The notes under the pieces are model-generated. The model was not told where the DNA came from. It searched no databases and saw nothing but the letters and a program-made list of their open reading frames with translations. Positions 5,104-43,022 of a stretch of DNA of 64,000 bases are shown in pieces (within the stretch, counting starts at the first letter, position 1; every line of letters starts with the position of its first letter). Source of the DNA: an uncultured delta proteobacterium (GTDB lineage: Bacteria > Desulfobacterota > Desulfomonilia > Desulfomonilales > Desulfomonilaceae); assembly GCA_963789265.1 (NCBI GenBank), contig CAWBKB010000001.1, positions 1,568,001 through 1,632,000 of the forward strand, written 5' to 3'. The translations under genes and the position numbers were made by a program.

Positions 5104-5310
5104 GACAAATTGTCTCAAAACTAATTTGATGCCCAGAATCGTGCCACGATTAAGCCTGATGGGCATTTTCGGTGCTCTCACCCCAGCCCTCTCCCAGAGG
5201 GAGAGGGAGCTGATCCAAGGTCTCTATCAGCGTCCCCTCGCCCTTTGGGAGAGGGTCAGGGTGAGGGAATTTCGTCTTACGATTGCGTCCAGTTCAAGAG
5301 TTTTGAGACT
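5104..5310. mobile_element. MITE/cassette with IS1182-type ends carrying a CCCTCTCCC..GGGAGAGGG REP doublet, between hicA and hicB
   Basis: TGTCTCAAAA (5111) / TTTTGAGAC (5301) ends, ATCGTGCCACGAT and TCGTCTTACGA boxes; 14-bp direct repeat at 5090-5103 and 5303-5316. Confidence 0.75.
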
Positions 5311-5494
5311 CCTCGATAGCCCGGCGCACCGCGCGGACCCGGTACTTTTTCGCTTCATCTCCCGGTCTTCCGGAGATTGTCACTGGCTTGGACACCTTCG
5401 GGTGCACGAAGTTTCGGTGACTTCCCTTTCCGCCACGATCTACGAAGCCGGCCTGAAGCAACTTGTCCGTCAACTCCCTCACCTTTGGTGGCAA
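5294..5494 (-). CDS. hicA: HicA-family mRNA interferase toxin
   Basis: 66 aa, KVRELTDKLLQAGF..GKGSHRNFVHP..VTISG motif. Confidence 0.88.
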   Translation of the reverse strand: MPPKVRELTDKLLQAGFVDRGGKGSHRNFVHPKVSKPVTISGRPGDEAKKYRVRAVRRAIEESQNS

Positions 5495-5565
5495 GGAGTC
5501 CTCCTCTATGTTTCAGCCGGCCGGCAGTGCAGGTCTGAACATATTGTCGTTCGTGGCTCTCTCAT

Positions 5566-6292
5566 TTATCCGCCAACTGCAATAAGCCGCAGAAGCTTTC
5601 GTAATTGCCGGAGATCGTTTTCCGATATCTTGCTTATGGCGAATCCAGTCAGGTAGGTTCCAATCTCGGCCTCGGCAAAACGCCACCGGCAGTACGCTTC
5701 GAATTCAAAGGAAGAAAATTCACCTAACTCGTCTCCAAGTACGACCAGAGTCTTGACTTCGCCTCGGTTGGCCTCGATCCCTGCAACGCCCACGCCTTCT
5801 TCAGAAATATCACGCACTGTACCATGAATTTCCGGCCGGCTTGCCTCGTAGATGAGCACCTCGAAATCGACTTCATGTCTCACAAATTCGCGGGTTGCAA
5901 GGAATTCCGTACGTTTCTTCGATGATTGTGTCCAGGCCATCCGTGACGACGGATCTCTTCCCGCGTGCGTCGAGCAGCTTCTTGCTCAATTGTCGAAGCA
6001 TGTCTTCCGACAATTCGTACTTTCTCATGAGGTCCGAGTCATTCATCCCCTTTCTGATGTCGGCCAGGACTTCGCCGATGTTGAGCTTACGTCGGACAGG
6101 CGTCTGATCCTGCTTCAGGAGACGGGCTTCGATCAACTTTTGATAAAGTCTCTGCAAGCCCTTGAAGGAAAGGTTGTATTTTTGTCGAATCGCGGTCTCG
6201 TCCATCCCCGATCGGATGTCATGAAGGACTTCCCTAAGAGGCACTTTGCGTACAATCATAACTTTTCCCGGACCAGCGGTTTGAGTGGTCAT
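5566..6292 (-). CDS. PilZ-domain protein with two N-terminal helical repeats; +1 frameshift near 5910-5916
   Basis: ORFs 5873-6292 and 5566-5940 join; PilZ RxxxR (REFVR) and DxSxxG (DISEEG); two DIRxGM..KYxLS repeats. Confidence 0.7.
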
Positions 6293-6379
6293 CCTACGCC
6301 ATAACCTGAGATCATGGAACTAAAAAATATTAGCTTGTAATCATTCGCTTCCGCCGGGTTCTCGGCGGGACAGGCATCC

Positions 6380-6588
6380 GAAAGAGTCACAAAACTATTT
6401 TGATGACCAGAATCGTGCCACGATTGAGGCTCATTCGTATAGTCGTCGCCCTCACCCCAACCCTCTCCCAGAGGGAGAGGGAGCAGGTCCAGGGCAGTTC
6501 TGCACTTCCCTCGCCCTCTGGGAGAGGGACACATGGTGAGGGATTCGTGGTACGATTTCGTCCGCTTCATTGCTTTTGAGACAGTTTC
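6380..6588. mobile_element. MITE/cassette with IS1182-type ends, inserted in a REP hairpin
   Basis: Ends GAAAGAGTCACAAAA / TTTTGAGACAGTTTC; ATCC duplicated at 6376-6379 and 6589-6592; REP doublet cargo. Confidence 0.85.
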
Positions 6589-6766
6589 ATCCTGCCGGTC
6601 AATGCTTAGTGGCGGGCAGGATGCCCACCCCACTGAAGGAGGCTTCGCTTCGCTCGCAAAGACACAGGCCGAGACAGGATGTTGTGAACACAAACTTGCA
6701 CCAACAGCTCAAAACAAATGGGCTTTACCCGTGTTCAGCCGCGTGCGGTTGAGCCGCGACAGCCTG

Positions 6767-9458
6767 TTAGGCCTCTTGCCCTCCGGCCGAATAGGCCAGA
6801 GCCAGCAGAATGGAGTTGAACTTGGTCTGGGCCGTGTCACCGCGGGACGTCAGAACTATGGGGACTGTACCGGGACCGGCTGTGATGATGGCGCCGTTGT
6901 CGACAAGAAGGCCCAGGGTTCCCATGGTTTTCGAGAGCATCTTGTAGAGGACATTTGCAGTATTAATGTCGGTAGCGACCAAGCAGTTTGCGTCCCCCAT
7001 GATTCGCCCCTGATAATGCTTTTCCTTGGCCACTTCAGGGACTGTGGCCAGATCAAAAGATAACGGGCCTTCAACGATCAGGGGGCCGTACCGGTCTTCC
7101 AGTGCTTTGGCTCGCTCTTCAGCCTCAGCGGCAAGAAGAGTGGCGGGAATTGCCGCAGTCTCCTTTTCAACTGCGGTTATCAAGGCCACTTTGAGGATAT
7201 GCCGTTTAGCCACGACTTTTCTGACCACGTCCAACTGGTTCTCTATCACCTTTGTCAGCGCTTCCGCATTTCGGAATCCGGGATTCACCGCGGCGTCGGA
7301 CAGAGCGAGGAAGCGGCCGTCGGGGAGAACAAACAGTGCGGTGTTCGATGCCAGCCGCCGGGGAGCCGGAGCGGCCCCAGCGCCGCCATTTGAATCGGTC
7401 CTGTAGATGGACAGCGCTTCACGCAGAAGCCCGGCCGTATCCACGCTCCCCTTCATCACAAGAAAATCGCGGTTTTCTTTGAGAAAGGCGCTGAATGTCT
7501 CGGCCATGGATTTCTTCTTTGCGTCGAAATCAACAGCCAAGGGGTCAATCGGGACCAACTCCACTCCGGGATCCAGATTGGGAGACAACCGGACTTTAGA
7601 CCGCTCGACGGCATCCTCTATTTCCGGAGGGTTCCCGATAAGCGCTACCCTGTCGACCAAGCCGTAATCCCTCGCGTTGGAAACCGCGACCAGTGCATCT
7701 TCATTGTCGGCTCCAACCAGGACCAAGTCGGCCGGACGGAACCTTCCCTCAGTGATATAACCTGTGACCTCATCAAGGAGCGAAGAGAACGAGAAGGTTT
7801 CAACAGCGCCTTCTGCCGCACCCAACACCTGTAGGGCATGTTGAACGCTCTTTGCTTCAACCGTGTATTGCAGGCGTCGATCTCCCTTGGCCGGATTTAC
7901 GTACATTTCAAAAAGATGATTCGCTATGAGATACTCCTGTTCCAGGGAATCCAGGCACATTATTGGAGTAAACGGCTTATCCAGCATCTCACGAATGCGC
8001 CCGAAGAGTTGATGGAAGTGACGATCAAGGGCCATCATGCTGGTAATTACAATGAAGTCCGGACGCTGAGAGGATTTGCCCGCAGAAGCCATCTCCAACA
8101 CCACAGCTACCTGCCGCGCGTATGAGTTGACCACGTGCATCAGGCTTCGTGCCAAGGAGGTGGATATCTTCCCGGACTCGACGATCATTAGTAATTCGCA
8201 GATCTCTTTGACTCCCGTTCCTATTCCGGGAGTGGCCAGCCGAAAGTGAGGAGGTATCGTAAAGTTTCTCTTGCTTCAGGCATTCTACGATCTTGTCGAA
8301 GTCGAATTCCGTCAATTCTCGGTTGGCCTCCTGGGCGGTGATTTCGCGAACTATGCGGGGGCCGATCTTTCTTGCCACTGAAGCAAAGAGTTCGTCCAGG
8401 GTCAGTACAAGAAGATTCAATGTCTCCGGATTGATCCTGTGAATCTCTGAAAGGAGCGCCGCGACCGATTTCAAAGGCGTTACCTTTACGAACCCCTTGA
8501 GGCTTTGTCTCAGTTCTCTCGATTCAGCCCTGAAAAGATTCCGGACATCTTGCGACCTTAACGTGGAAAAAGATAGCGGACTGCACAGCGATGCGTTGAC
8601 AACATCCCTGTCACCTTGACGCTTCAGCAAATCACGCAACTCCCACGCCACAAGCGCTCCGCGATTCAGAGAGCTGTTGTGCAATCTCTTCCACGATTCG
8701 TCGCGAACCTTTTCTGTTAGCACATAGATGCCGTCCGGAACGGTCCCCAGGTCGCCTCCGCCGCATACCACGTCCGTCACTTCCGAGAGCTTGATTTCGC
8801 TCTTCAGAAGGAGATTGGTGATCTGGAGGGCCAATTCTTCAGGAGAAGTACCGAACGTTCGGAAGTCGATCTCACTTCGAAAGAGCACCCGAAACCCTTG
8901 TACAGCCAGCACGTATACCGCATACCGTTTGGCAATGAGTGCCACGGTAATGGTCCGTTCCAGTTGTTTGAATGAGCGTTCGAGCTGCGGATGGTCGATT
9001 TCAATTGCTTTTCGACGGGCTATGTTACTGAGAATCATGTGAACGACGGGACTTTCTCGACCCGGGCTGCCGCAACGGTACAGGATCAACACATACACTG
9101 AGAGAAGTTCCCCATAAATTTTCGCAAACTGCCTCTCATGCCTGACATCGTCGGTAGCGGACAGAATGCCCTCCAACAGGACCCTGAGTTCGAAAAAGTC
9201 CTCCGGGTTCCTTATACGGTGTTCGAGTGCGAGGATTTCCGCGATTACTCGCTCGTGAAGGAATTCCGATATATTTTCCAATTCTTGTGCCGCATTCTTT
9301 GCGTCACTAAGTGCTGCTTGGATTCGGTGAACTCTCGGCGGCGCTTCAGAAGAGTCACCTCGCAAATCACAAAACAAGGCCGGCGGAAAGTAACCTGATT
9401 CTGCTATGGCCCGTTGCAGCTCTTTGATGCTCTTGCTTATTCCCTTATCTTCTCTCAT
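6767..9458 (-). CDS. Fusion of degenerate butyrate-kinase-like domain and phosphate acetyl/butyryltransferase domain; +1 frameshift at about 8265-8267
   Basis: C-terminal PTA/PTB motifs (LVMKGSVDT, SDAAVN, VEGPLSFDLA, ANVLYK, PIVLTSRGD); Buk-like VCGGGDLGTVPDGIY; removing one base joins ORFs 8025-9458 and 6767-8188. Confidence 0.75.
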
Positions 9459-9508
9459 TGTATTCTACCGATCTTCCGTAAGTTCCGGCTTCAATCTCTA
9501 TAACATTA

Positions 9509-9692
9509 TATAGCAGTTGCCAAAAAATAATGACCGATTGCACGACGGTCCAGGGGAGGGCACATTAGTGGGGCGGACTTTCTGGTCCGCCGAATTTGTG
9601 AGCGAAAGCGCAGACTGGAAAGACTGCGCCACAAATGGAGACACCCCCAAACTGCTGTAGTGAAACGGTCAAAAATATTGGCAACTGCTATA
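9509..9692. mobile_element. MITE with TA-terminated inverted repeats carrying a REP doublet
   Basis: Perfect 15-bp IR TATAGCAGTTGCCAA / TTGGCAACTGCTATA; cargo matches free REP at 14619-14684. Confidence 0.75.
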
Positions 9693-9772
9693 AACGAGCA
9701 GACAATGGATCTAGTTCGTCTGAAAATACAGACCACGGTACCCGTCACCTATACGAGGAACCTTTCGGCCCT

Positions 9773-9905
9773 TGTCATTGCGAGGAGCAAATAGTGGGAC
9801 AGGCATCCTGCCTGTCTATTATGGACGACGGGCAGGATGCCCGTCCCACTGGCAATCTAAGCGGGTTCATAAAAAAAAGATTGCTTCGCTTCGCTCGTAA
9901 TGACA
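9773..9905. repeat. Nested REP-like repeats
   Basis: TGTCATTGCGAG...CTCGTAATGACA outer IR with inner GTGGGACAGGCATCCTGCC..GGCAGGATGCCCGTCCCAC doublet at 9793-9850. Confidence 0.7.
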
Positions 9906-9950
9906 ACCTTTTCAGCGCTCGTACGCAAATTCTTTCAAGAGGGGTTTGTG

Positions 9951-11216
9951 GTGAAAATACTGGTTATAAACGGCGGCAGCTCATCTCTGAAATACACGCT
10001 TTTTGACATGATTGACGAGAGCGTCCTTTTCGAAGGAATAGTCGACAGGGTAGGGCTTCCAGGCAGCAGCCATTCCTTCAGTTGGGGAGACAAGAGCAAG
10101 CCGGAGACAGTTAAAGAGGTCCCGATCGGCGATCAGGGTCAGGCGCTGGATGAAATGCTCGCGACCCTCGCCCCCGGTCCCTTGAATTCCCTTGAGGAGC
10201 TTGCCGCGGTAGCTCATCGCGTGGGGCACGGCGGAAAATATCGAGATGCGGTGAGAATCGACCCGCACGTGATCTCCGAGATCAGGCGCATGACACCCAT
10301 GATCCCGATTCACCACCCCGCCATGATCAAAGAAATAGAAGAATGCCGGGCTCGCATGCCTCATGCGGTGCATGTTGCGGTGTTCGACTCCTGGTTTCAC
10401 TGGTCGATCCCTGATGAAGCCGCAATCTATGGTTTGCCCTACCGGTATTTCGCGGAGAAAGGGTACCGCCGAACAGGATTTCACGGGAATTCGCACGCGT
10501 ACAATTCGGAAAAGGGCGCGGAATTTGTGGGCCGGCTGTTGGAAGAACTCAAGATCATATCTTGCCATTTGGGTAACGGCGCGAGCGTCTGTGCGATTGA
10601 GCGCGGCAGATCCATAGATACTACTCTCGGGATGACCTCTGTAGAGGGGCTCATCATGGGCACGCGATCCGGTGACGTAGATCCGGGGCTCATACCTGTG
10701 ATCATGAAAGAGGATTCTCTAACTCCGGATCAAATGGTCAGGATGCTATACACCGAGTCCGGGCTGCTTGGGATCAGCGGCATAAGCCGTGACATGCGTG
10801 AAATCGAGCAGGCGGCCGCGGGGAACCCCAGGGCCGCGCTCGCGGTGAATGCTTTCTGCTATAAGGTGAAACGTGCCATAGGTGCGATGCTTATGGTCCT
10901 CGGCGGGTGTGATGTATTGATCTTCGCGGGCGGAATCGGCGTTAACAGCCCCACGGTCAGATCGAAGGCGCTCGCGGGAACAGCCGGTCTCGGCTTTGTG
11001 ATAGACCAGGAGAAGAACAGCGGTCCGGAAAGAGCCACCGAAGAGCATCCAGTTGTGGAGATCTCCGCTGCATCTTCTAAGGTGCGCATCCTTGTGATCC
11101 GAACCTTCGAAGAGCTTATAATGGCTCGCCAGTGTATGAAGGTGGTGCGAGGGGAGGGAAGTGCTGCTATAGGAACTGCCCCCACAGCCCATGAGGAGCA
11201 ACGCCAGCCGAAATGA
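9951..11216 (+). CDS. ackA: Acetate kinase
   Basis: ILVINGGSSSLKY, HRVGHGG, GFHG, CHLGNGAS, GLIMGTRSGDVDPG, FAGGIG, TFEEL motifs; GTG start with GAGGGG RBS. Confidence 0.93.
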   Translation: MKILVINGGSSSLKYTLFDMIDESVLFEGIVDRVGLPGSSHSFSWGDKSKPETVKEVPIGDQGQALDEMLATLAPGPLNSLEELAAVAHRVGHGGKYRDAVRIDPHVISEIRRMTPMIPIHHPAMIKEIEECRARMPHAVHVAVFDSWFHWSIPDEAAIYGLPYRYFAEKGYRRTGFHGNSHAYNSEKGAEFVGRLLEELKIISCHLGNGASVCAIERGRSIDTTLGMTSVEGLIMGTRSGDVDPGLIPVIMKEDSLTPDQMVRMLYTESGLLGISGISRDMREIEQAAAGNPRAALAVNAFCYKVKRAIGAMLMVLGGCDVLIFAGGIGVNSPTVRSKALAGTAGLGFVIDQEKNSGPERATEEHPVVEISAASSKVRILVIRTFEELIMARQCMKVVRGEGSAAIGTAPTAHEEQRQPK

Positions 11217-11665
11217 TGAAAGCGAAATACAAACACACAAACATCATCGCGCGCGATTGGAACGCACTCGCAGCCTTCTATGAAAAGGTCTTCGGATGCG
11301 TTCGTGTTCCGCCGGAACGCCGCTTGTCCGGTGAATGGTTGGAAAAAGGGACAGGAGTTCCCGCCGCGCGATTCTCGGGTGTGCATCTGCGCTTGCCGGG
11401 TCATGGCAGCAGTGGACCGACCCTGGAGATATACCAGTACTCGGAAAATACGCCCAAGCCGCGGCCGATGGCAAACCGCGAAGGCTTCTCGCACATCGCG
11501 TTCGAAGTCGAAAATGTTGCCGATGCTACGGCGCAAGTCTTGAAACACGGCGGAAGAAAGATCGGTGACGTAACAAGCGCCAGTGTCGAAGGAGTCGGAA
11601 TCCTCACATTCGTCTATCTTGCCGATCCCGAAGGAAATATCATTGAACTTCAGGCATGGGGATGA
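11213..11665 (+). CDS. VOC/glyoxalase family protein
   Basis: HTNII..FYEKVFG, LEIYQY, HIAFEV, YLADPEGNIIEL; ATGA overlap with ackA. Confidence 0.88.
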   Translation: MMKAKYKHTNIIARDWNALAAFYEKVFGCVRVPPERRLSGEWLEKGTGVPAARFSGVHLRLPGHGSSGPTLEIYQYSENTPKPRPMANREGFSHIAFEVENVADATAQVLKHGGRKIGDVTSASVEGVGILTFVYLADPEGNIIELQAWG

Positions 11666-12007: not shown

Positions 12008-12036
12008 TTGACATATATCGTCGCGAGATATATCGT
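12008..12036 (+). promoter_or_regulatory. Sigma70-type promoter overlapped by palindromic operator (likely PadR autoregulation)
   Basis: TTGACA (12008)-17 bp-TATCGT (12031); ATATATC-N7-GATATAT at 12013-12033. Confidence 0.7.
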
Positions 12037-12055
12037 AGTGCCCAAAGGAGCCCCC

Positions 12056-14618: not shown

Positions 14619-14684
14619 GTGGGGCGGACTTTCCAGTCCGCCGAATCTAAGACTATAAACCGCAGACTGGAAAGTCTGCGCCAC
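14619..14684. repeat. REP-like doublet
   Basis: GTGGGGCGGACTTTCCAGTCCGC ... GCAGACTGGAAAGTCTGCGCCAC inverted pair. Confidence 0.7.
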
Positions 14685-14896
14685 GAGCTAGATAGAAAGA
14701 AATGTAATCTGATCCGTTGGGCGGGGACGGGCATCTGAGACTGTCTCAAAATCAAACCATGAACGAAATTCGTAGCACGATGCTCCCTTTTCCCGGCAAT
14801 CCCGCGTTCCGCGCGGGACCGGGCTACTATCTGCGGTCCCTCAGGGACGCTTGCATTTAGCCCCATCGGGGCGATAGAAAGTAGCCCGGCGCTTCA

Positions 14897-16572
14897 GAAA
14901 CTGTCTCAAAAGTCGATTTTGGGCTCGCGATTCTCAACCGATTCTACTAATGAGATGTGAAAAGAGAATCGGAGAGGGAAAGGATTATGCCGCAAATCAG
15001 AGCCGACTACAAGCAGGTGTTTCTGCTTCCGCCCGCTATAGATGACTGGATAGGGCCTGATCATCCAGCGCGCTTCATAGGAGACTTTGTGGATTCCTTG
15101 GATTTGGAGGTGCTGGGTTTTCGAGTTCCGAATGGCGAAACGGGCCGTCCTCCCTATAGTACCGATCTTTTGTTGAAGGCATGGCTCTACGGCTATTTCA
15201 GCAGAATCAGGTCATCGCGCAAGCTTGAGAAGGCATGCATGGAGAACATGGGATTGATTTGGCTGACGGGTATGAATGCAGCGGATCATAATACCCTGTG
15301 GCGATTCTGGAGGGACAACAAGAAGGTTTTCAAGGGAATATTCAAACAATCGGTTCAAGTGGCAGTCAAAGCCGAGTTGATAGGTATGGCGGTTCATGCA
15401 TTGGATGGAACCAAGATCCCTGTCGGATCATCTCGGGAGAAGTTCAAGAACCAAGATCAGTTGGAGCGGATGCTTGAGAATTTGGACAAGTGCGTTGCCG
15501 ACGTCATGACGGAGACAGAGAGGTGCGAGCAAGAGGAGGGTGGCGAATGGCGTCTTCCCGAAGCCCTGCAGGACGAGTTGAAACGCAAGGAGCGGATACA
15601 GAAGGCCTTGCAGGAATTGGATAAGACTGACAAGAAGGTCGTCCATCCCTGCGAGCCGGATGCCCGGTACATGAAGAACCGGCGGTCTACTGAGCCCTCT
15701 TACAATGCTCAAGCGGTGGCAGACCAACAAAGCGGCATGATTGTGGCTGAGGAAGTGGTCGACGAAGGCAATGACAATGGGCAGCTTGTTCCCATGCTGG
15801 ATCGAGTTCAGGAAAATTTGGGCGCAACCGCAGAGGAAACCGTGGCGGACGCAGGATACTTCGCATCGGCTCAAATCGCGTTGGCCGAAGAGAAGGAGTA
15901 CGAGGTCTTGGTCGCCAAGTCGTCGGGAGAGTCCGCTGCGGAAAAAGGCGCTCAATGGGACCCTTATCACGCTTCCCAGTTCGTCTACGACCAAGAGCGA
16001 GACGTCTGTATTTGTCCGCAAGGCGCATCGCTGAACTTTCTTCAGAAGAAAGTCACAGGAAAAAACGGAAACGAGATCCGGCGGTATCGATGCCGGGACT
16101 ACTTGACGTGTCCTGAACGGTGGAAGTGCAGCAAGAGCAAGAATGGCCGTCTCATAGACATTAACATCTATCGTGACGCAGTTGAGCGCCACCGCAAGAA
16201 ACGGGAGGTCCCGGAAAGCAAGACGCTACTCCGAGCCCGCAAGGTGATCATTGAGCCGGTCTTTGCATGGATAAAGAGCCACTTGGACTTTAGACGGTGG
16301 ACCGTGTCCGGATTATCCAATGCGAGGGCTCAATGGTCTTTGATGTGCGCCACCTTGAATCTCAAGAAGCTCTACAGCCATTGGCTGACGGGGCGTCTGG
16401 TGCTAACCGCGGCCTAAGACATCAGGACGGAGAGTGACTCATGGCTGCCTGAGGCATACTCATAGCCGGCCCCGGCTCGTCGGAGACAAGGGAGGCCAAG
16501 GTGCGAGATTAACCGCACCCTACCACCCCGAGAGTCGTCATCGTGCCACTACAACCGTTTTGAGACACTCTC
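14897..16572 (+). mobile_element. IS1182-family insertion sequence, copy 1 (1676 bp)
   Basis: IRs GAAACTGTCTCAAAA / TTTTGAGACACTCTC; TTCA duplicated in loop of CCCGGCGC-TTCA-GCGCCGGG hairpin. Confidence 0.92.
14987..16417 (+). CDS. IS1182-family transposase
   Basis: LLPPAIDDWIGPDHPARFI, GRPPY, SSRKLEK, LDGTKI, YNAQAVAD, ADAGY, ICPQG, IEPVFAWIK motifs. Confidence 0.93.
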   Translation: MPQIRADYKQVFLLPPAIDDWIGPDHPARFIGDFVDSLDLEVLGFRVPNGETGRPPYSTDLLLKAWLYGYFSRIRSSRKLEKACMENMGLIWLTGMNAADHNTLWRFWRDNKKVFKGIFKQSVQVAVKAELIGMAVHALDGTKIPVGSSREKFKNQDQLERMLENLDKCVADVMTETERCEQEEGGEWRLPEALQDELKRKERIQKALQELDKTDKKVVHPCEPDARYMKNRRSTEPSYNAQAVADQQSGMIVAEEVVDEGNDNGQLVPMLDRVQENLGATAEETVADAGYFASAQIALAEEKEYEVLVAKSSGESAAEKGAQWDPYHASQFVYDQERDVCICPQGASLNFLQKKVTGKNGNEIRRYRCRDYLTCPERWKCSKSKNGRLIDINIYRDAVERHRKKREVPESKTLLRARKVIIEPVFAWIKSHLDFRRWTVSGLSNARAQWSLMCATLNLKKLYSHWLTGRLVLTAA

Positions 16573-16825
16573 TTCAGCGCCGGGCTTGACATCGTGGCGC
16601 GATTCTGAGCATCAAGATCGTTTTGAGACAGTTTCATCTTGCCGGACTATGAGCGACAGGCTGGACTGTCCCACTACATGCTCACTGCAATGAAAAGGGT
16701 GAGAAGATTCCCCAGGTAGGTGAATGCATGCTGCTGTACCCGCTCCCAAAGTGAAGAAATAGCGAATCTTGATGCAACAAACTTTAGCAGGGGGGAGCAC
16801 GTCGCTCCGCGTAAGGAGATGGCTA

Positions 16826-26113: not shown

Positions 26114-26220
26114 GTTGGGTATCTACTTCCTGCGTTTATATGTATAAGCTGCATCCTGATTGCTGCATTTCACAAATTCGGCAATGCATCCCGGATAAAT
26201 GCGGTGGGAGAGGCATCCTG

Positions 26221-28874: not shown

Positions 28875-30431
28875 ATGGGACAAAGAATGAACGTTCTACT
28901 GGTACAACCGAAGCTTCCTTACTCTTTTTGGAGTTTTGATCAGGTACTGAAACTCACGGGCCACAGGGCCCTGGTATCGCCACTTGGACTCATCACGGTT
29001 GCTGCACTGCTTCCACAAGAATGGGACTTGCGACTGATTGATAGGAATTTCCAGCAGATCACTGATGAGATGTGGAACTGGTCGGAAATAGTGATGATAT
29101 CCGGGATGATAGTGCAGAGCGAGGATTTTCTCAAGGTAACAAGGGAAGCAAAACGAAGAGCGAAAACAGTGGTGGTTGGAGGGCCTTATCCGACTTTGCT
29201 TCCTGAGGAACCCAAAGAGGCGGGAGCTGACTTTGTGGTCAAAGGAGAGGCCGAAATCGCTGTTCCTCTTTTGCTCGATGCTTTGGCCTCCGGCAAAAAA
29301 AACGCGGTGATTGAAGGGCCTTCCAAGCCGGACATGGGCATATCGCCTATACCCCGTTTCGATCTTCTACGTCTGGATGCATACGTTGCAATTGGAGTTC
29401 AGACTTCCCGGGGATGCCCCCATGACTGTGATTTCTGCAATGTAACCAGCATGTACGGAAGAGCGCCTCGGTACAAACAAGCCGGCCAGCTTATAGCCGA
29501 GTTGGAACTGCTCCACTCCCTGGGCGGGCACGGGGATGTGTTTATATGCGACGACAATTTTATTGGTAGTAGGAAGCATGCCCGTTTAATCCTTGAGAAG
29601 CTGATCCCGTGGAATAAGGCTCATGGCGAACCTTTCAGTTTTTGGACTCAAGCCTCGGCAAACTTGGGGCAAGATCTCGAGTTGATTGACTTGATGACCA
29701 AGGCGAACTTCAACACCGTTTTCGTAGGGATTGAATCTCCGGACGAGGAAGTTCTTGAAGGCGCGGGCAAACACCAAAATGTCAGGAATCCCTTGGCTGA
29801 GTCGATGCATAACATAAATGCGAACGGCCTTTCGATTGTGGGAAGTTTCATCGTCGGGCTGGACGGCGAGAAGGCCGGCGCCGGAGACCGGATCGTAGCC
29901 TTTGTGGAACAAAGCGGCATACCGGTGGTCATGTTGAACACCTTGCAGCCTTTACCCGGTACCCGCCTGTGGCATCGCCTGAAGGAGGAGAATCGTCTCC
30001 TGGATGAAAGAGGCAGCGGCGTTCCTACCGGGGGAGAGCTGGGTTTTATTCCCACGAGACCGGAGGCCGAAATTATTGGAGAATACAGGGACCTTACGGA
30101 TCGTCTTTACGAACCCTCAGCTTTCTTACACCGCGCCTACAAATTCTTCCTCACCATGAGACCCACTCGGAAAGCTCTGGGTACCGAGACCGAAGCGGAG
30201 CGATCTCATGGTCTGCTTGCCAAAAAGATAGCAAACAAGGAAACAGCTCGCCATCTTAAGGTGCTTCTATTCCTCGTCTGGAGGTACGGAATTGCGGGTT
30301 CGACCAGAATTCAGTTTTGGAAGCAGCTTGTAGGAATATGGAGATCGAATCCGAGCCGACTGATCCAGTATCTTGTCACCATTGCCAACGGACAGGATTT
30401 GTCCCACTTGAGAAATCACGAGTGCCGTTAA
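28875..30431 (+). CDS. B12-binding radical SAM protein (DUF4070/HpnP-like class)
   Basis: SFWSF..PLGLITVAALLP, SRGCPHDCDFC, DDNFIG, TQAS, VFVGIES. Confidence 0.88.
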   Translation: MGQRMNVLLVQPKLPYSFWSFDQVLKLTGHRALVSPLGLITVAALLPQEWDLRLIDRNFQQITDEMWNWSEIVMISGMIVQSEDFLKVTREAKRRAKTVVVGGPYPTLLPEEPKEAGADFVVKGEAEIAVPLLLDALASGKKNAVIEGPSKPDMGISPIPRFDLLRLDAYVAIGVQTSRGCPHDCDFCNVTSMYGRAPRYKQAGQLIAELELLHSLGGHGDVFICDDNFIGSRKHARLILEKLIPWNKAHGEPFSFWTQASANLGQDLELIDLMTKANFNTVFVGIESPDEEVLEGAGKHQNVRNPLAESMHNINANGLSIVGSFIVGLDGEKAGAGDRIVAFVEQSGIPVVMLNTLQPLPGTRLWHRLKEENRLLDERGSGVPTGGELGFIPTRPEAEIIGEYRDLTDRLYEPSAFLHRAYKFFLTMRPTRKALGTETEAERSHGLLAKKIANKETARHLKVLLFLVWRYGIAGSTRIQFWKQLVGIWRSNPSRLIQYLVTIANGQDLSHLRNHECR

Positions 30432-30610: not shown

Positions 30611-30687
<77 letters not shown>

Positions 30688-30701
30688 ATCGTTATCTCTT
30701 C

Positions 30702-30730
30702 AATATAGAAACAATAAGCCCGTATGTCAA
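30702..30730 (-). promoter_or_regulatory. Sigma70-type promoter of tRNA-fMet
   Basis: TTGACA-17 bp-TATATT on minus strand just upstream of the tRNA. Confidence 0.8.
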
Positions 30731-30750
30731 GAAAAGCTTGAATTGCTTTG

Positions 30751-30870
30751 TGTGCATTCAGTTACAGCCGGAATTTGCAGGTGGCTTCGTGGGGTGGGCT
30801 TTCTAGCCCGCCATTGAACAGGGGATTCCTCGGCAGGCTGGAAAGCCTGCCCCACAAGACTGAATGGCTA
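30751..30870. repeat. REP doublet within short degenerate terminal IRs (MITE-like)
   Basis: CATTCAGT / ACTGAATG ends around GTGGGGTGGGCTTTCTAGCCCGCC..GGCAGGCTGGAAAGCCTGCCCCAC. Confidence 0.55.
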
Positions 30871-30925
30871 TATTGCTTTCACCAGGCATATTCTAAAAGC
30901 CTTTGATCCCGCTATGATGGGCCGA

Positions 30926-34148: not shown

Positions 34149-34276
34149 CCGCTAATTGGAGATGGCAGCAGCGGTTTTTAACCAGTTGAAGGTCAAACGA
34201 GTGGACAACTGATGAGGAAATGGGATATGAATCTGCTCTTATCAACTCGAACGCGCGAGCATTGAGGGGATGTTTG

Positions 34277-36585: not shown

Positions 36586-38097
36586 CTACCTTCTGTGTGC
36601 CTTTTCTATGACTTTGGCATAAGTATGGTAATGCTCGCATCCAATAGAGTAATCAAAAAATCGGACCAATTGGGTCGGATTTTTCAGGAAAATTTTCAAG
36701 AGGTTCCGCCAAAAGACGAAGCGCGATGAATATAGGATTCCATGTCTTATGATCACGGCAAACAATCCTTTGATTTCGAACTTCTTAGGGAACTGAAACG
36801 ATCTGCGTCGGGCCAGAGGTTTCATCCTCAGGATGTGGGTGGCCACTCTGTCAAGATAATGTCTTCGATCGTACAGGCTATTGTACAGACTTGTAAACTC
36901 TTCCGTGATCTTCTCCATGGGTTTGGTGGGATTGAAGTTCATCGGACTCGTCTGGTTACTGAAGTTGCGGTAATCTCTTGTAAGGAGTCTGTCTTCTTTA
37001 GCCAGCCTGTTCCACAGGTCGGTCCCCGGTCCAGCTTGTAACAACGTTACAAACATTTCGGGGATACCCGTAAGACGAGCAAATTTCTGGAGCCGATCCC
37101 CGGCGTCGCTCGGTTCACCGTCAAATCCTAGAATACATCCGGCAATTATCCCAAGCCCCGCCTCATTAATTTTACGACACACTTCGACCAGGTCAACTTT
37201 CGTATTTTGTGATTTCTTTGTCCTCGTCAAAGTCTCTTCGTCAAGTGTTTCTATGCCGAGAAATACCTTGAAGAACCCAGCCTCAACCATGAGATCCAAC
37301 AGTTCATCGTCCGTGGCGAGATTCACTGAGGCTTGAGTGTAGAATCCATAGGGATTTCCGTGAACACCGAGCCATGGAATCATTTCTTCCAAGAGAGCTT
37401 TAGTCTTTCTGAAACTACCTACAAAATTGTCATCGGCAAGAAAGATGTAGTGCCGATAGCCGAGATCGTAGAGCGATTGCAATTCCGCGACAATCTGCTT
37501 GGGTGATTTCGTTCTCACCTTGTGCCCTAGCATGTGAGTAACATCGCAAAACTCGCATTCAAATGGGCATCCTCGTGAGAATTGGATAGACACGTTGAGA
37601 TATGCTGTAATATCAATCAGATCGTACCTAGGCACCGGCGATTTCTCCAGGTCAGCCATTGCCTGGGCCCGGATAATCACACCTGTTAGCCCTTGTGCAA
37701 TCGCTTCGAGGATCTCAGGCATAGTTGCTTCAGCCTCCCCGACTACGACGATGTCGGCCCCCTCCCTCAAAGCGTCTTCAGGGTAGTGGTACACCCATGC
37801 CCCGCCTATAACAACTTTTTTGCCTCGCTGATGGGCTTCACGTATAGTCTTGATAATATCTTCGTATTGTACGGTCATGCCCGTGATGAACACCAGGTCG
37901 GCTTCTGTCCATTGGGATTCTTTGACTTGTTCGAATTCGCGATCAACTACTTCGAGTTGCCATTGCGAGGGTAACAGGGCTGCCACCGTAAGCAGACCCA
38001 ATGGCGGCAGGGTAGCCTTTTTGCCGAGTAGTTTCAGTACTGGCCCAAATGACCAGAATGTTGTCGGAGTCGCTGGGTTTATGAGCAGAGCTTTCAA
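36586..38097 (-). CDS. B12-binding radical SAM protein (DUF4070/HpnP-like class), paralog of 28875-30431
   Basis: TFWSF..PPLGLLTVAALLP, SRGCPFECEFC, DDNFVG, TQAS, VFLGIET. Confidence 0.88.
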   Translation of the reverse strand: MKALLINPATPTTFWSFGPVLKLLGKKATLPPLGLLTVAALLPSQWQLEVVDREFEQVKESQWTEADLVFITGMTVQYEDIIKTIREAHQRGKKVVIGGAWVYHYPEDALREGADIVVVGEAEATMPEILEAIAQGLTGVIIRAQAMADLEKSPVPRYDLIDITAYLNVSIQFSRGCPFECEFCDVTHMLGHKVRTKSPKQIVAELQSLYDLGYRHYIFLADDNFVGSFRKTKALLEEMIPWLGVHGNPYGFYTQASVNLATDDELLDLMVEAGFFKVFLGIETLDEETLTRTKKSQNTKVDLVEVCRKINEAGLGIIAGCILGFDGEPSDAGDRLQKFARLTGIPEMFVTLLQAGPGTDLWNRLAKEDRLLTRDYRNFSNQTSPMNFNPTKPMEKITEEFTSLYNSLYDRRHYLDRVATHILRMKPLARRRSFQFPKKFEIKGLFAVIIRHGILYSSRFVFWRNLLKIFLKNPTQLVRFFDYSIGCEHYHTYAKVIEKAHRR

Positions 38098-38719
38098 ACT
38101 TCGTCTTCTCCTCGAATCGCGAGTTGGTGTCGACGTTGCTGTTGACAGGAATCATGCGGCGGTCTTGCTATTTTGAGCGTTTGGGAACCGTTGAGCAGTC
38201 GAGTTACAGTTTCGAAGACCCGAAAATATGTCCGCAAGAAGTACCACAGTTCCCGATCCAGGCAAAACCGTCGTCACCTCACTGAGAAAGCCACATTTTC
38301 CCAGTTTTTGAACATACACGGTCGTCCGCGCCACTGTCAACCAAATTTCTGTCAGCTCTCACTCGAAGACAGGGCAGTAATGTCGAGCCAAGAAAAAGTG
38401 CCGACGCCACATCAACATGCCAACTCCTTGCACGATAAGATACTGTGGCTCCAGCCTTCAAGATTGGGGCAACGTTTGTCGGCCATCGATAACTGACAGA
38501 GTTCATATTCTTCCGGTGCTTCAGGTGAGTCTTATACAATTCGTTCAGAACCATTCTTTTGACTCCGCTGTTCGTCTTTCGTTGGCATAAACCAACGTGA
38601 AATGTGAGTGCCAATTTCCTGACCGAATGGTTCCTCGGCTGCCTTCGATTCATTGACGTTTTTTCCCGATTCTCAAATACGTCAAACATCAATTCCTGTT
38701 TCTCCACAATTCCAACTTA

Positions 38720-40008
38720 GGGATTGTCCACAAATAAGTCTTGCAATTTGATTTCGCGTTTTGTATAGAGCGGGGGCATGATTGATGTGTCCCATATCAT
38801 AAAGAGGTTCGAATTGCTAGAACCTTTATTGGGTGAGCGCGAAGTCAGAATGCTTGACGCGGCTGAAGCAGAGTGCATAGGCCGCGGTGGGGTAACGCTG
38901 GTCGCGGAAGCGACCGGGGTATCTCAGCGTAGGATTGCCGAGGGGATCAAGGAGTTGAGGCAGGAGGAACGCCTGGACAAAGGCCGGACCCGCAGAAAGG
39001 GAGGAGGCCGCAAGAGAATCATCGAGAAAGACGACGCTCTGGAACGGGATTTGGAACTTTTGCTGGACCCGTGCACTCGGGGCGATCCCGAATCACCGTT
39101 GAGGTGGACGAGTAAAAGCTTGCGGAAACTTGCAAGAGAGCTGACGGCCATGGAACATAAGATCGGGAAGTCAGCCCTAGCTGGAATCCTTCGGAAAATG
39201 GGATACAGCCTTCAGGCAAACCGAAGGACCCTGGAGGGTTCATCCCACGAGGACCGTGACGCGCAATTTCAGCACATCAGTTCCAGAGCCTTGGAGTTTC
39301 TCAAAGATGGGCAACCGGTTCTATCGGTAGACGCCAAGAAGAAGGAGTTGATAGGCCGATTCAAGAATGGCGGACGTGAATATCGTCCCAAAGGCAACCC
39401 CCAAGAGGTTTGTGTCTACGACTTCATGGACAAGCAATTAGGTAAGGGGGTCCCCTACGGGGTGTACGATACCGGCAAAAACGAGGCTTGGGTGAGCGTG
39501 GGCATTGACCACGACACCGCATCCTTTGCAGCGGAATCCATACGGCGGTGGTGGCGTTACATGGGAGAAGAGTCCTATCCCAATGCGAAGAAACTGCTGA
39601 TAACAGCTGATTCCGGCGGCAGCAACGGCTCCAGAATTCGACTCTGGAAAATGGAACTGCAGAATCTTGCAGACGAACACGGCATGGAGATTTCCGTGTG
39701 CCACCTGCCTCCCGGCACCAGCAAATGGAATAAGATCGAGCACCGACTCTTCGCATTCATTACCCAAAACTGGAGAGGAAAACCTCTGGTAAGCCACGAA
39801 GTCATCGTCAGTCTCATAGCGCACACAACGACCTCCACAGGACTCAAGGTCCGCTGCGAGCTTGACACCAACGCCTATCCTAAAGGGACCAAGATATCGG
39901 ATAAGGAATTCGCAACCATAAACATCTCAAAGAACAACTTTCATGGCGAATGGAACTATACCGCACCGCGGAGCCCCTAAAATGAGACAGTTAGTTATGG
40001 ACAAGCCC
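38720..40008 (+). mobile_element. ISAzo13-family insertion sequence
   Basis: IRs GGGATTGTCCACAAATAA / TTAGTTATGGACAAGCCC enclosing transposase. Confidence 0.88.
38778..39980 (+). CDS. ISAzo13-family transposase
   Basis: TRGDPESPLRWTSKS, GYSLQAN, SVDAKKKE, DHDTASFA, ADSGGSN, PPGTSKWNKIEHRLF, FHGEWNY. Confidence 0.95.
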   Translation: MIDVSHIIKRFELLEPLLGEREVRMLDAAEAECIGRGGVTLVAEATGVSQRRIAEGIKELRQEERLDKGRTRRKGGGRKRIIEKDDALERDLELLLDPCTRGDPESPLRWTSKSLRKLARELTAMEHKIGKSALAGILRKMGYSLQANRRTLEGSSHEDRDAQFQHISSRALEFLKDGQPVLSVDAKKKELIGRFKNGGREYRPKGNPQEVCVYDFMDKQLGKGVPYGVYDTGKNEAWVSVGIDHDTASFAAESIRRWWRYMGEESYPNAKKLLITADSGGSNGSRIRLWKMELQNLADEHGMEISVCHLPPGTSKWNKIEHRLFAFITQNWRGKPLVSHEVIVSLIAHTTTSTGLKVRCELDTNAYPKGTKISDKEFATINISKNNFHGEWNYTAPRSP

Positions 40009-40994
40009 TAAGCACCCGTTCTGGAAATTCTCCGAACGGGCCCTCTTTCTGGCCAAACGTGGGCCACGCACAGTCGGGCGGATTGCCGGAATATTGGACA
40101 ACAATTTCAATTCCTTTCACGATGAAAAAATGGGCGCGTGGGGATTCTTTGAATGCGAGGACGACCCGGGTGCTGCTAAAGCTCTATTTGACGCGGTTGA
40201 GCAGTGGACGCGCAGTAAAGGTCTATCGTTCATGCGAGGACCGTTCAATCCGTCGACCAATTACGACATCGGCCTACTTATAGAAGGTTTTCAGTATCCC
40301 CCGTCTATCATGATGCCTTACAACCCGTCCTATTACGCGCAGCTCATCGAGTCCTGCGGTCTTTCCAAAGAAAAAGATCTGGTGGCCGTGATCCTTGAAA
40401 AGAATCAAGCCAAAAGTGATCGAGTTCAACGGTTGGCCCGGAGAATTGCACGGAACAAAAAGGTTACCATCCGAAAAGCGGAGAAGAAGAATTTCAGCTC
40501 GGAAATGGCTCTGATCAGAGAAATCTATAATGCGGCCTGGTCGCGAAACTGGGGCTTTGTTCCCATGACAGACGAAGAAATGCTCGACGTGGGCAAGGAG
40601 ATGCTTCAGATCGCGGATACTGACTTGATACTCTTCACTTACTTTGAAGACGAGCCGGTTGGGGTGACCATAGTACTTCCCGACATCGGACCTTTGCTAA
40701 AGCGCTTGAACGGCAAGATTGGACTCCTCGGTATTTTCAAAGTCCTGTTGTTCAAGCATGAAATCAGGAGCGCGGCGAGCTTTGGCCATGGGATTCAAGA
40801 AATCCCATCAAGGCTTGGGCTTGCCTATTATTACGTTCGATCACCTGCTGAAAGTGTGGGAAAAGAAAAACTTTGATTTTATTGAAATTGGTTGGAACCT
40901 TGAAGACAATCATGACATCATCAACCTTGAATTGGAGTTCGGCTCCCGTATTTATAAGCGATATCGGATATTTCGGAAAGATATCGTGATTTGA
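40009..40994 (+). pseudogene. 5'-truncated paralog of the 34277-35401 GNAT acyltransferase
   Basis: Matches gene 1 from 34417 onward; first 47 codons absent at IS junction; +1 G at 40774-40775. Confidence 0.85.
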
Positions 40995-41096
40995 AAAACG
41001 TCGAGTCTCTGTTGAAGGGCAAACTTTCCGAGTCTGTCTCAAAACTAAACCGTGAATAAAATTCGTAGCACGATGCTCCCTTTTCCCGGCAATGAA

Positions 41097-42772
41097 GAGA
41101 GTGTCTCAAAACGGTTGTAGTGGCACGATGACGACTCTCGGGGTGGTAGGGTGCGGTTAATCTCGCACCTTGGCCTCCCTTGTCTCCGACGAGCCGGGGC
41201 CGGCTATGAGTATGCCTCAGGCAGCCATGAGTCACTCTCCGTCCTGATGTCTTAGGCCGCGGTTAGCACCAGACGCCCCGTCAGCCAATGGCTGTAGAGC
41301 TTCTTGAGATTCAAGGTGGCGCACATCAAAGACCATTGAGCCCTCGCATTGGATAATCCGGACACGGTCCACCGTCTAAAGTCCAAGTGGCTCTTTATCC
41401 ATGCAAAGACCGGCTCAATGATCACCTTGCGGGCTCGGAGTAGCGTCTTGCTTTCCGGGACCTCCCGTTTCTTGCGGTGGCGCTCAACTGCGTCACGATA
41501 GATGTTAATGTCTATGAGACGGCCATTCTTGCTCTTGCTGCACTTCCACCGTTCAGGACACGTCAAGTAGTCCCGGCATCGATACCGCCGGATCTCGTTT
41601 CCGTTTTTTCCTGTGACTTTCTTCTGAAGAAAGTTCAGCGATGCGCCTTGCGGACAAATACAGACGTCTCGCTCTTGGTCGTAGACGAACTGGGAAGCGT
41701 GATAAGGGTCCCATTGAGCGCCTTTTTCCGCAGCGGACTCTCCCGACGACTTGGCGACCAAGACCTCGTACTCCTTCTCTTCGGCCAACGCGATTTGAGC
41801 CGATGCGAAGTATCCTGCGTCCGCCACGGTTTCCTCTGCGGTTGCGCCCAAATTTTCCTGAACTCGATCCAGCATGGGAACAAGCTGCCCATTGTCATTG
41901 CCTTCGTCGACCACTTCCTCAGCCACAATCATGCCGCTTTGTTGGTCTGCCACCGCTTGAGCATTGTAAGAGGGCTCAGTAGACCGCCGGTTCTTCATGT
42001 ACCGGGCATCCGGCTCGCAGGGATGGACGACCTTCTTGTCAGTCTTATCCAATTCCTGCAAGGCCTTCTGTATCCGCTCCTTGCGTTTCAACTCGTCCTG
42101 CAGGGCTTCGGGAAGACGCCATTCGCCACCCTCCTCTTGCTCGCACCTCTCTGTCTCCGTCATGACGTCGGCAACGCACTTGTCCAAATTCTCAAGCATC
42201 CGCTCCAACTGATCTTGGTTCTTGAACTTCTCCCGAGATGATCCGACAGGGATCTTGGTTCCATCCAATGCATGAACCGCCATACCTATCAACTCGGCTT
42301 TGACTGCCACTTGAACCGATTGTTTGAATATTCCCTTGAAAACCTTCTTGTTGTCCCTCCAGAATCGCCACAGGGTATTATGATCCGCTGCATTCATACC
42401 CGTCAGCCAAATCAATCCCATGTTCTCCATGCATGCCTTCTCAAGCTTGCGCGATGACCTGATTCTGCTGAAATAGCCGTAGAGCCATGCCTTCAACAAA
42501 AGATCGGTACTATAGGGAGGACGGCCCGTTTCGCCATTCGGAACTCGAAAACCCAGCACCTCCAAATCCAAGGAATCCACAAAGTCTCCTATGAAGCGCG
42601 CTGGATGATCAGGCCCTATCCAGTCATCTATAGCGGGCGGAAGCAGAAACACCTGCTTGTAGTCGGCTCTGATTTGCGGCATAATCCTTTCCCTCTCCGA
42701 TTCTCTTTTCACATCTCATTAGTAGAATCGGTTGAGAATCGCGAGCCCAAAATCGACTTTTGAGACAGTGTC
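41097..42772 (-). mobile_element. IS1182-family insertion sequence, copy 2 (1676 bp, inverted)
   Basis: Same length and same translated transposase as copy 1. Confidence 0.92.
41252..42682 (-). CDS. IS1182-family transposase
   Basis: Protein identical to 14987-16417. Confidence 0.93.
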   Translation of the reverse strand: MPQIRADYKQVFLLPPAIDDWIGPDHPARFIGDFVDSLDLEVLGFRVPNGETGRPPYSTDLLLKAWLYGYFSRIRSSRKLEKACMENMGLIWLTGMNAADHNTLWRFWRDNKKVFKGIFKQSVQVAVKAELIGMAVHALDGTKIPVGSSREKFKNQDQLERMLENLDKCVADVMTETERCEQEEGGEWRLPEALQDELKRKERIQKALQELDKTDKKVVHPCEPDARYMKNRRSTEPSYNAQAVADQQSGMIVAEEVVDEGNDNGQLVPMLDRVQENLGATAEETVADAGYFASAQIALAEEKEYEVLVAKSSGESAAEKGAQWDPYHASQFVYDQERDVCICPQGASLNFLQKKVTGKNGNEIRRYRCRDYLTCPERWKCSKSKNGRLIDINIYRDAVERHRKKREVPESKTLLRARKVIIEPVFAWIKSHLDFRRWTVSGLSNARAQWSLMCATLNLKKLYSHWLTGRLVLTAA

Positions 42773-43022
42773 TTCAGCGCCAGGCTGCCATCGTGCCACG
42801 ATTCCGAGCATCAAAATAGTTTTGAGATACTTTCTTCCAGCCTGCCTTTTTCTTCCCTTGGCTGACGACAGGCCGAAAAGCTTGCTCCGCAGGCTTAATG
42901 ACACTTTCCCGCTGAAAATTGAGTGCTTGCCGGGATCAATAAAATAACGTTTCTTTTTCGACAAAATCGGAGTTATAATAGTATCGCGTAATTCATGTTC
43001 AATTTGGTATGGGGCTAGGATA

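Follow-up and report, generated by a model that had tools for sequence, protein, structure and literature searches.

The DNA considered here is a 64,000-nt stretch, referred to below as the window, of a contig from an uncultured delta proteobacterium of the Desulfomonilaceae. It contains four dispersed copies of a short element, named A, B, C and D, whose inverted tips resemble those of a resident insertion sequence (IS) of the IS1182 family. Two copies of this IS are nested inside C and D. The four elements are best explained, with a probability of about 0.7, as type II MITEs (short for miniature inverted-repeat transposable elements) of the IS1182 family that target hairpin loops, carry swappable cores and inhabit Desulfomonilaceae-type genomes. 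This classification is based on the features that define type II MITEs: the elements are small, lack a transposase gene, have terminal inverted repeats and target duplications, occur in multiple copies, and resemble the IS only in their tips. An earlier sequence-only reading of the window had described them as non-autonomous cassettes with IS1182-type ends. Its description of the units holds with some amendments, among them that A spans about 5106-5315 and that most of C and D is the nested 1,676-bp IS. The elements and IS copies are arranged as follows.

5106..5315, + strand: element A, core c1; arm a 5106-5151, arm b 5270-5315; boxes 5139-5149 and 5272-5282
6380..6588, + strand: element B, 209 bp, core c1; arm a 6380-6425, arm b 6543-6588; boxes 6413-6423 and 6545-6555
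14737..16635, - strand: element C, core c2 with nested IS; arm b 14737-14782, arm a 16590-16635; boxes 14770-14780 and 16592-16602; core 14783-14896 plus 16573-16589
14897..16572, + strand: IS1182-family IS, copy 1, 1,676 bp; transposase gene 14987-16417
41030..42834, - strand: element D, core c2 with nested IS; arm b 41030-41075, arm a 42789-42834; boxes 41063-41073 and 42791-42801
41097..42772, - strand: IS1182-family IS, copy 2; transposase gene 41252-42682

Two-part arms of the elements

The tip sequence GTCTCAAAA has 10 exact matches in the window, each of which marks an end of one of the four elements or of a nested IS copy, and two more ends differ from it at a single position (GTCACAAAA at 6386 and ATCTCAAAA at 42820). 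Together, these ends form six inverted pairs, four belonging to the outer elements and two to the inner IS copies, which confirms that the elements share the tips of the resident IS. When one mismatch is allowed, the window holds 20 tip matches against a chance mean of 18.9. As this total is not above chance, it is the arrangement of the tips, not their number, that carries weight. The second component of each arm is a palindromic box. The sequence TCGTNNNACGA occurs eight times in the window, where 0.91 occurrences are expected, and none of 100 shuffled sequences reached eight. Seven of these copies lie within arms, and the remaining outer arm, in element C, has the box TCGTGGCGCGA at 16592-16602. 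Each of the eight outer arms has GTCTCAAAA separated from the box by precisely 18 nt. The arms are of two types, a and b, and every element in the window has one of each, so that the elements are oriented, with A and B pointing one way and C and D the other. The five variants of a TCGT-N3-ACGA box quoted by the sequence-only reading are all present; across the family, the box is better written as TCGTG-S-CACGA or TCGTAGCACGA.

A genome scan with a pattern composed of tip, gap and box returned at least 94 stretches. The 94 listed matches, each with up to 2.5 kb of flanking DNA, are the loci designated here by L numbers. Of these listed loci, 93 belong to at least 19 metagenome-assembled genomes (MAGs), mostly labelled Desulfomonile or Desulfomonilaceae, with a few under other names. 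The window's own genome is absent from the listed matches, and comparison of the window with the 94 loci gave no DNA match beyond the elements and one common 90-bp repeat segment, in L046. One locus (L072) lies on a 1.6-kb contig labelled Acidobacteriota, in a MAG of a different phylum; wrong binning or transfer may be the cause. A solo match in Brevibacillus formosus (L086), which has no partner arm, is probably due to chance. The pattern-selected arms were made into a profile, which served to find partner arms. This search recovered 178 full arms, comprising 77 pairs and 24 unpaired arms. Fifteen of the unpaired arms lie at contig or locus ends, two terminate a single 2,588-bp element, four are matched by weak partners, one is the Brevibacillus match, and two are solo or truncated. 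Element lengths cluster at 77 bp (eight elements), 199-210 bp and 235-240 bp, with a few elsewhere, and span 77-251 bp when nested insertions are excluded.

Comparison of 146 unique arms defines the architecture: a 15-bp tip, GAAAnTGTCTCAAAA, and the 11-bp palindrome TCGTG-S-CACGA, separated by a gap of variable sequence and constant length. Positions 1-15, the tip, mostly carry 1.1-1.9 bits, the fifth base being variable, and positions 32-44 (AATCGTrsCACGA) mostly carry 1.0-1.9 bits, with a lower value at the box centre. Information content is 0.0-0.5 bits at positions 18-31 and about 0 (at most 0.5) beyond the box. The commonest boxes are TCGTAGCACGA (34 arms), TCGTGCCACGA (31) and TCGTGGCACGA (27), the latter two being perfect palindromes. 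For 64 partner arms, the scan pattern imposed no constraint; 60 of them carry a box with no more than two mismatches, and in 56 of these 60 the gap is 18 nt. In the 423 kb of sampled DNA, the box was counted 63 times in arms and once outside them, which rules out, for this DNA, a role as a general host operator. What is conserved in the box is its sequence; compensating changes are absent, and the b-arm variant is not a full palindrome. For these two reasons, the box would suit a protein-binding site better than a folded structure.

Hairpin-loop targets and replaceable cores

The junctions of the paired elements bear the marks of transposition. Perfect 4-bp duplications flank 36 of the 77 pairs (0.5% in a random control), and in a further 16 pairs the flanks match at three of four positions (4.9% in the control), supporting the existence of a multi-copy, non-autonomous family as originally proposed. 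A contiguous perfect stem of at least 5 bp adjoins the duplication in 31 of the 77 elements, compared with 1.4% of control sites. This indicates insertion into the loops of hairpins resembling repetitive extragenic palindromic (REP) sequences. A looser, fold-based loop test (52 of 76 elements versus 153 of 380 controls) proved too lenient, and the contiguous-stem test was used in its place. Chance origin is ruled out by the box shuffles together with the duplication and stem controls. The target stems differ in sequence (GGCAGGCT/GGAA, GACAGGCA/TCC, CCCGGCGC/TTCA and CCATGGGT/TGAA among them), so that symmetry or structure is their common feature.

In the window, the duplications described by the sequence-only reading are confirmed as ATCC for B (6376-6379 and 6589-6592), ATCT for C (14733-14736 and 16636-16639) and TTCC for D (41026-41029 and 42835-42838). 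The loop occupied by element B belongs to a GACAGGCA-TCC-TGCC REP; the inverted partner of this REP lies intact at 6615-6625. The proposed targeting of REP hairpin loops is further borne out by intact REPs of the same families elsewhere in the window, including additional copies of the family targeted by B and C at 26212 and 26349.

9798..9845: intact REP doublet, inverted, of the family targeted by B and C (GACRGGCA-TCC-TGCCYGTC)
14623..14680: intact REP doublet, inverted, of the family targeted by D (GGCGGACT-TTCC-AGTCCGCC and CGCAGACT-GGAA-AGTCTGCG)
30832..30851: intact REP hairpin GGCAGGCT-GGAA-AGCCTGCC, the empty counterpart of the site in L046

The L046 site is filled by a 208-bp element with the duplication GGAA. 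Its flank is 91% identical to that of the window hairpin over 90 nt on one side, and homology continues on the other. The surrounding genes are non-syntenic, so that the pair represents homologous copies of a repeat and no proven orthologous site. Reconstruction of 76 uninterrupted sites yielded six junction-spanning matches, of which four, including L046, are clear, one is ambiguous and one is an artefact in which element A matched itself. The window hairpin belongs to a segment (30614-30880) that begins with a tRNA gene (30614-30687, - strand, 63.1 bits), the only match to Rfam at gathering threshold in the whole window. After the tRNA gene comes a repeat unit, about 130 bp long and with CATTCAG...CTGAATG as its inverted ends, that contains two REP hairpins; homologous units are found in L046 and L035.

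Between the two boxes lies the core. Labelling of the 77 pairs by motif distinguished the following types.

core c1: CCCTCACCCC...CCCTCTCCC/GGGAGAGGG doublet; 24 elements; the type of A and B
core c2: cluster of four hairpins with CCCGGC stems; 14 elements; the type of C and D
core c3: CCCCCC/GGGGGG hairpins; 12 elements
core c4: GTAGGGGCGGGG...CCCCGCCCCTAC doublet plus about 90 nt; 15 elements
core-less form: 77 bp with a single central palindrome; 8 elements
mixed cores: 3 elements
other core: 1 element

The division of cargo first noticed in the window is correct: A and B carry the CCCTCTCCC...GGGAGAGGG doublet, the CCCTCTCCC motif being found in the window only inside these two elements, and C and D carry the cluster of CCCGGC hairpins. 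The interchangeability of this cargo is evident from the arms that surround it. Arms of the S1 lineage occur with c2 (13), c1 (4) and one 77-bp element, and arms of the S4 lineage with c1 (4) and c2 (3). Within one MAG, the combination of an S1 and an S4 arm encloses c1 in L082 and c2 in L045 and L046. When elements with unlike cores are compared, the box segment has an identity of 0.78-0.83 and the 14 nt behind it one of 0.28-0.36. This collapse of identity just past the box, together with arms common to c1 and c2, identifies the core as a replaceable module bounded by the palindromes. The lineages come from single-linkage clustering, in which S0 (47 arms) is over-merged; the claim of modularity therefore uses S1 and S4 only, and one S1 member, the right arm of L060, seems misassigned.

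The cargo-less versions that the sequence-only reading had suggested looking for exist as the 77-bp forms, which account for eight of the 77 pairs. These consist of the two arms of longer elements joined at one palindrome, whereas loaded forms have exactly two. The arms of the 77-bp element in L093, for example, match those of 204-bp c3 elements, and 77-bp elements combine arms of different lineages. Judging from these sequences, loss or exchange of a core would occur most simply through deletion or gene conversion at the conserved repeats of 13-15 bp. Gene-carrying versions, for which that reading had also suggested a search, were not found: the sole long element (2,588 bp, from L015 2495 to L016 2544, on one contig and with the duplication CAAT) is a c3 MITE containing a nested foreign IS and no true cargo. 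The 761-aa open reading frame (ORF) of this IS4-like element is a transposase that joins an N-terminal DruA-like domain (DruA) to the Tn5-type domains Tnp_DNA_bind and Dimer_Tnp_Tn5, for DNA binding and dimerization; at the junctions of the element, a repeat of TTAGAAAA is present.

Cores also exist outside the elements. Free, armless copies of c2, c3 and c4 were found (examples are L062 2300-2420 and L057 860-970), none with flanking boxes, and one free c2 cluster has its TGAA loop occupied by the element in L077. All copies of core c1 that were found lie within elements or next to unpaired arms, mostly at the ends of contigs. The suggestion that the elements disseminate REPs is accordingly plausible for c2, c3 and c4 and does not extend to c1. 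The cores and targets have the traits of REPs and of the doublets known as REPINs, being short GC-rich palindromes that form inverted doublets in the window and, for c2, c3 and c4, occur free; some cores are flanked by GTAG/CTAC. In the standard c2 core, hairpin H2 (CCCGGCAA-TGAA-TTGCCGGG) lies by the b arm and hairpin H1 (CCCGGCGC-loop-GCGCCGGG) by the a arm, and this orientation is uniform in the c2 elements inspected.

The cores, being REP hairpins, are targets for the family, which explains the location of the two window IS copies inside core hairpin loops. The two copies differ at one of 1,676 nt, the third base of the left tip of copy 2, which argues for recent activity of the resident IS. 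Its 476-aa transposase scores 363.8 bits against NF033551, the NCBIfam model of the IS1182 family (cut-off 270), and contains the Pfam domains DUF772, DDE_Tnp_1 and DDE_Tnp_1_6. The IS tips, GAAACTGTCTCAAAA and GAGAGTGTCTCAAAA, share 13 of 15 positions and both fit the arm consensus. Copy 1 is flanked by the duplication TTCA (14893-14896 and 16573-16576) and sits in the loop of H1 (CCCGGCGC-TTCA-GCGCCGGG). In its length of 1,676 bp, its duplication and its palindromic target, it has the features of the IS1182 family.

Copy 2 has a different context. Its flanks, TGAA (41093-41096) and TTCA (42773-42776), are reverse complements and not a direct repeat, and its junctions join the left half of H2, ending in TGAA, to the right half of H1, starting with TTCA; the core of D is short of about 100 bp. 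The MITE in L045 is likewise flanked by reverse complements, TTCC (2333-2336) and GGAA (2545-2548). Recombination between copies in oppositely oriented hairpins would explain such flanks. An origin of D by replicative inversion between two IS copies was compared by hand with the junctions, and the predicted flanks match only three of the four. The junctions agree better with a deletion from one core hairpin to the other, H2 to H1, which could have arisen through two insertions and recombination between the IS copies or through an intramolecular attack on the neighbouring loop.

The core hairpins contain smaller insertions as well.

14800..14818: small hairpin TCCCGCG-TTCCG-CGCGGGA, a secondary insertion that replaces the H2 loop in element C; L063 is arranged in the same way

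In both places, a REP hairpin of 17-19 nt with the form TCCCGCG-loop-CGCGGGA is nested in the loop of another REP without visible duplication, and similar small hairpins occur free at window position 59709 and in L006, L025 and L091. A further small element, with inverted ends CATAAGCGTTAA...TTAACGCCTATG, lies inside a c1 core hairpin in L024 (2165-2544), where it is flanked by the repeat CCCTCTGGGAG, and is also found in L053 at about 2590. Its position points to another mobile family that shares these hairpins as targets.

Mobilization and competing explanations

In the proposed mechanism, the 15-bp tip GAAAnTGTCTCAAAA would be the end that is cut and joined, and a DDE transposase of the IS1182 family would act in trans by recognizing the tips. 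A 4-bp staggered cut would be made in the loop of a palindromic REP-type hairpin, the target being recognized by its symmetry or structure and not by a fixed sequence. The palindrome may be an accessory protein-binding site required for efficient mobilization of such short elements, and the protein bound to it could be a second contact of the transposase or a bending or bridging factor. The DNA between the palindromes is dispensable, being either absent, as in the 77-bp forms with one common palindrome, or a member of one of at least four families of hairpin repeats. Short-homology recombination at the palindromes, or template switching there, would account for the loss or exchange of cores, which, being REP hairpins, would in turn serve as targets for the family.

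Several observations weigh against this explanation. The most important concerns the sequence-only proposal that the resident IS1182 element mobilizes the family, of which only a part stands. The 15-bp tips match, but the IS ends fit the arm profile only over their first 20-29 nt. One IS end has TAGTGGCACGA, a 10/11 match to the box, at a gap of 6 nt and not 18, and the other has no box even when three mismatches are allowed. This lack of the arm architecture is the main weakness of the claim that this particular IS is responsible. In addition, a tblastn search of the 94 loci (flanks up to 2.5 kb) with the window transposase found no relative outside the window. Of the target sites, 25 of 77 match at two or fewer of the four duplication positions. 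A clean duplication is seen at only one IS copy, that in C, the copy in D and the element in L045 having reverse-complementary flanks. Element A shows neither a 4-bp duplication nor a hairpin target and is instead bounded by a 14-bp repeat, TTGAGACTCCTCGA. The empty sites provide one filled-versus-empty comparison, between L046 and the window, but all are homologous repeat copies and none is a proven orthologous pair. Some core changes resemble later insertions (the hairpin at 14800-14818 of element C and its equivalent in L063, the L015/L016 element, and L024); the earlier reading had listed later insertion as a sign against it. Finally, both the scan pattern and the profile favour arms with tip, gap and box, so that the conservation and spacing reported above were partly selected for.

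The weakness of the link to the resident IS gives substance to another possibility, in which the master element is a relative from the IS1182 subgroup that carries the palindrome at the 18-nt gap, the resident IS being similar only in its tips and targets. Such a master would account for the lack of a canonically spaced box at both resident ends and for a box as conserved as the tip across the 146 unique arms, which suggests selection by the mobilizer. Sister IS types evidently exist: besides the transposase's own cluster, 16 listed cluster representatives share 77-85% identity over at least 99% of its length. On the other hand, no box-ended IS was found in the window or the 94 loci, the resident tip pair (GAAAC... 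/ GAGAG...) recurs on many c3 and 77-bp elements, and the near-identity of the two IS copies speaks for the recent activity of the resident element. A different master is considered unlikely. The plasmid collection gave no DNA match to element C plus the IS, and the protein relatives of the transposase in that collection, at about 31% identity, are too distant for their ends to be compared.

The boundaries of the cores raise the question of whether a dedicated system of site-specific recombination uses the palindromes for crossover, with the 77-bp form as an empty acceptor and the longer elements as its loaded state. The same arms around different cores, homology that stops at the palindrome, the count of one palindrome in 77-bp forms and two in loaded forms, and the mixing of arm lineages in 77-bp elements would all be expected of such a system. 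Nevertheless, no recombinase gene is linked to any element; Pfam scans of the window ORFs revealed none in or beside the elements, and the idea of a cassette with its own exchange mechanism is not sustained. A palindrome of 11-15 bp is small compared with the core sites of known tyrosine or serine recombinases. The inspected c2 cores have a single orientation, whereas a symmetric site should permit both, and free cores have no flanking boxes. Slippage or gene conversion at the 13-15-bp repeats would yield the same pattern, and dedicated site-specific recombination is very improbable. A broader version, in which the palindromes are functional exchange points by whatever route and the 77-bp form is a carrier that loads and unloads REP or REPIN clusters, is also doubtful, if somewhat less so. 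If true, host hairpin repeats without their own transposase would be spread by a DDE-transposon shell, which would thereby supply itself with new targets. Two classes of selfish DNA would be joined in a partnership that reinforces itself.

At the other extreme, the elements could be ordinary host repeats, namely REPs or bacterial interspersed mosaic elements (BIMEs), spread by a REP-associated tyrosine transposase or by recombination, with arms that are not transposon ends at all. The cores are indeed hairpin doublets, some flanked by GTAG/CTAC as in GTAG-tagged REPs, and folding is strong (-95.3 kcal/mol for element A as RNA, z = -6.6). This interpretation is contradicted by 4-bp duplications that abut the 15-bp tips exactly, by tips identical to those of a DDE-type IS, and by armless free cores, which indicate that arms and cores are separable. 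Additionally, Pfam searches of 49 window ORFs detected no Y1 (tyrosine) transposase family. It would be extremely surprising if this interpretation were correct, and the explanation as IS1182-family MITEs is retained.

Related systems and neighbouring features

IS1182-derived MITEs and palindrome targeting by the IS1182 family are already in print. MITEPye1 of Paracoccus yeei is described as an IS1182-derived MITE with 4-bp repeats (PMC11578231). Like the elements studied here, it is small and non-coding, has terminal repeats similar to those of a resident IS1182 element, and is proposed to be mobilized in trans. It differs in being reported as a single type with 1-3 copies per chromosome (PMC11578231). 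The present family has many subfamilies in at least 19 MAGs, a palindrome at a fixed distance, swappable cores, a 77-bp form and loop targeting. The resident IS itself resembles ISPse1, a captured IS1182-family element for which a size of 1,653 bp, inverted repeats of 16 bp and a 4-bp repeat are tabulated (PMC3281130); both measure about 1.65 kb, end in repeats of about 16 bp and have a 4-bp duplication.

The closest precedent for target choice is IS1272, also of the IS1182 family, which targets stem-loops of varied sequence and is reported to replace them without duplication; one outcome of the model given for it is duplication of the loop alone, and the same source, citing a review by Siguier et al., notes that some IS1182 members target palindromes (PMC5678879). 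The transposase family, the variety of stem-loop targets and the apparently structural recognition are shared. In the present family, by contrast, the stem halves are kept on both sides and 4 bp at the loop are duplicated. This loop-duplicating insertion complements the "stem-loop replacing" mode of IS1272 within a family whose mechanism is still unsolved. A survey of REP-targeting IS covers IS1397, ISKpn1, IS621 and ISPsy8 and the families IS3, IS110, IS4, IS256 and IS5, with no mention of IS1182 (0 occurrences) (PMC1525189). REP-specific insertion is common to those IS and to the elements described here, but the former are autonomous, whereas the MITEs also carry REPs.

A MITE review that defines type II MITEs describes QMITE2 of Coxiella, in which an internal GTAG REP is the target of IS1111 (PMC10969869). 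The likeness lies in a MITE with a REP that serves as an IS target, giving an IS nested in a MITE. In the present case, the nested IS has the same tips as its host MITE, whereas IS1111, a member of the IS110 family, has no relation to the ends of QMITE2. Mobile insertion cassettes such as MIC231 of Bacillus cereus consist of IS ends around unrelated passenger genes and are mobilized in trans; here the passenger is a set of non-coding hairpin repeats or nothing at all, and no genes are carried. REPINs and BIMEs (PMC3116915, PMC3333891) are likewise inverted doublets of short GC-rich palindromes, some of them GTAG-tagged, a family defined in PMC3733652. REPINs are not known to have DDE-type IS terminal repeats or target duplications, whereas the doublets in the present elements are enclosed by transposon arms.

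Novelty appears to lie in the two-part arms and in the modular cores. A literature search, with ISfinder outside its scope, found no two-part arm with a palindrome at a fixed distance, no 77-bp form with one palindrome and no interchangeable REP cores bounded by palindromes, and a search for Desulfomonile together with insertion sequences returned no title on this topic. The dozens of diverged copies constitute a natural data set for separating the requirements of IS1182-type transposition from tolerated variation: the tip and the palindrome at a constant distance are kept, and all else varies. The family also links MITEs and REPs, which are usually treated apart, since these MITEs land in REPs, carry them and are targeted again through them. 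Such a cycle helps to explain the build-up of repeat-rich intergenic regions.

Element A provides a possible example of an effect on neighbouring genes. The features at this locus are listed below.

5294-5494, - strand: hicA (Pfam HicA_toxin)
ATG at 5087, - strand: 75-aa ORF following hicA; no Pfam match (region 4860-5494)
5090-5103 and 5303-5316: 14-bp direct repeat TTGAGACTCCTCGA bounding A on the left and right; the right copy overlaps the right tip of A

The inserted block is 213 bp long (5104-5316), and its outer tips are degenerate. When 5104-5316 is taken out, a stop codon of hicA is restored and shares bases with the ATG of the following ORF (ATGA), which marks A as an insertion between hicA and its presumed partner gene. 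The duplicated 14 bp include a GGAG upstream of the ATG of the next ORF; hicA and the following ORF would accordingly both be intact but uncoupled by A. Pfam scanning of A and B (209-213 bp) found no family apart from that of the neighbouring hicA. The separation of the toxin gene from the next gene represents a testable effect of a MITE on toxin-antitoxin coupling.

The region as a whole is rich in mobile DNA. A DDE_Tnp_1_4 transposase fragment lies at 1932-2732, and a complete ISAzo13-type transposase (DDE_Tnp_ISAZ013, 454 bits) at 38778-39980. Between the two IS1182-family copies, the window also encodes two paralogous B12-binding radical SAM proteins with DUF4070 (28875-30431 and 36586-38097).

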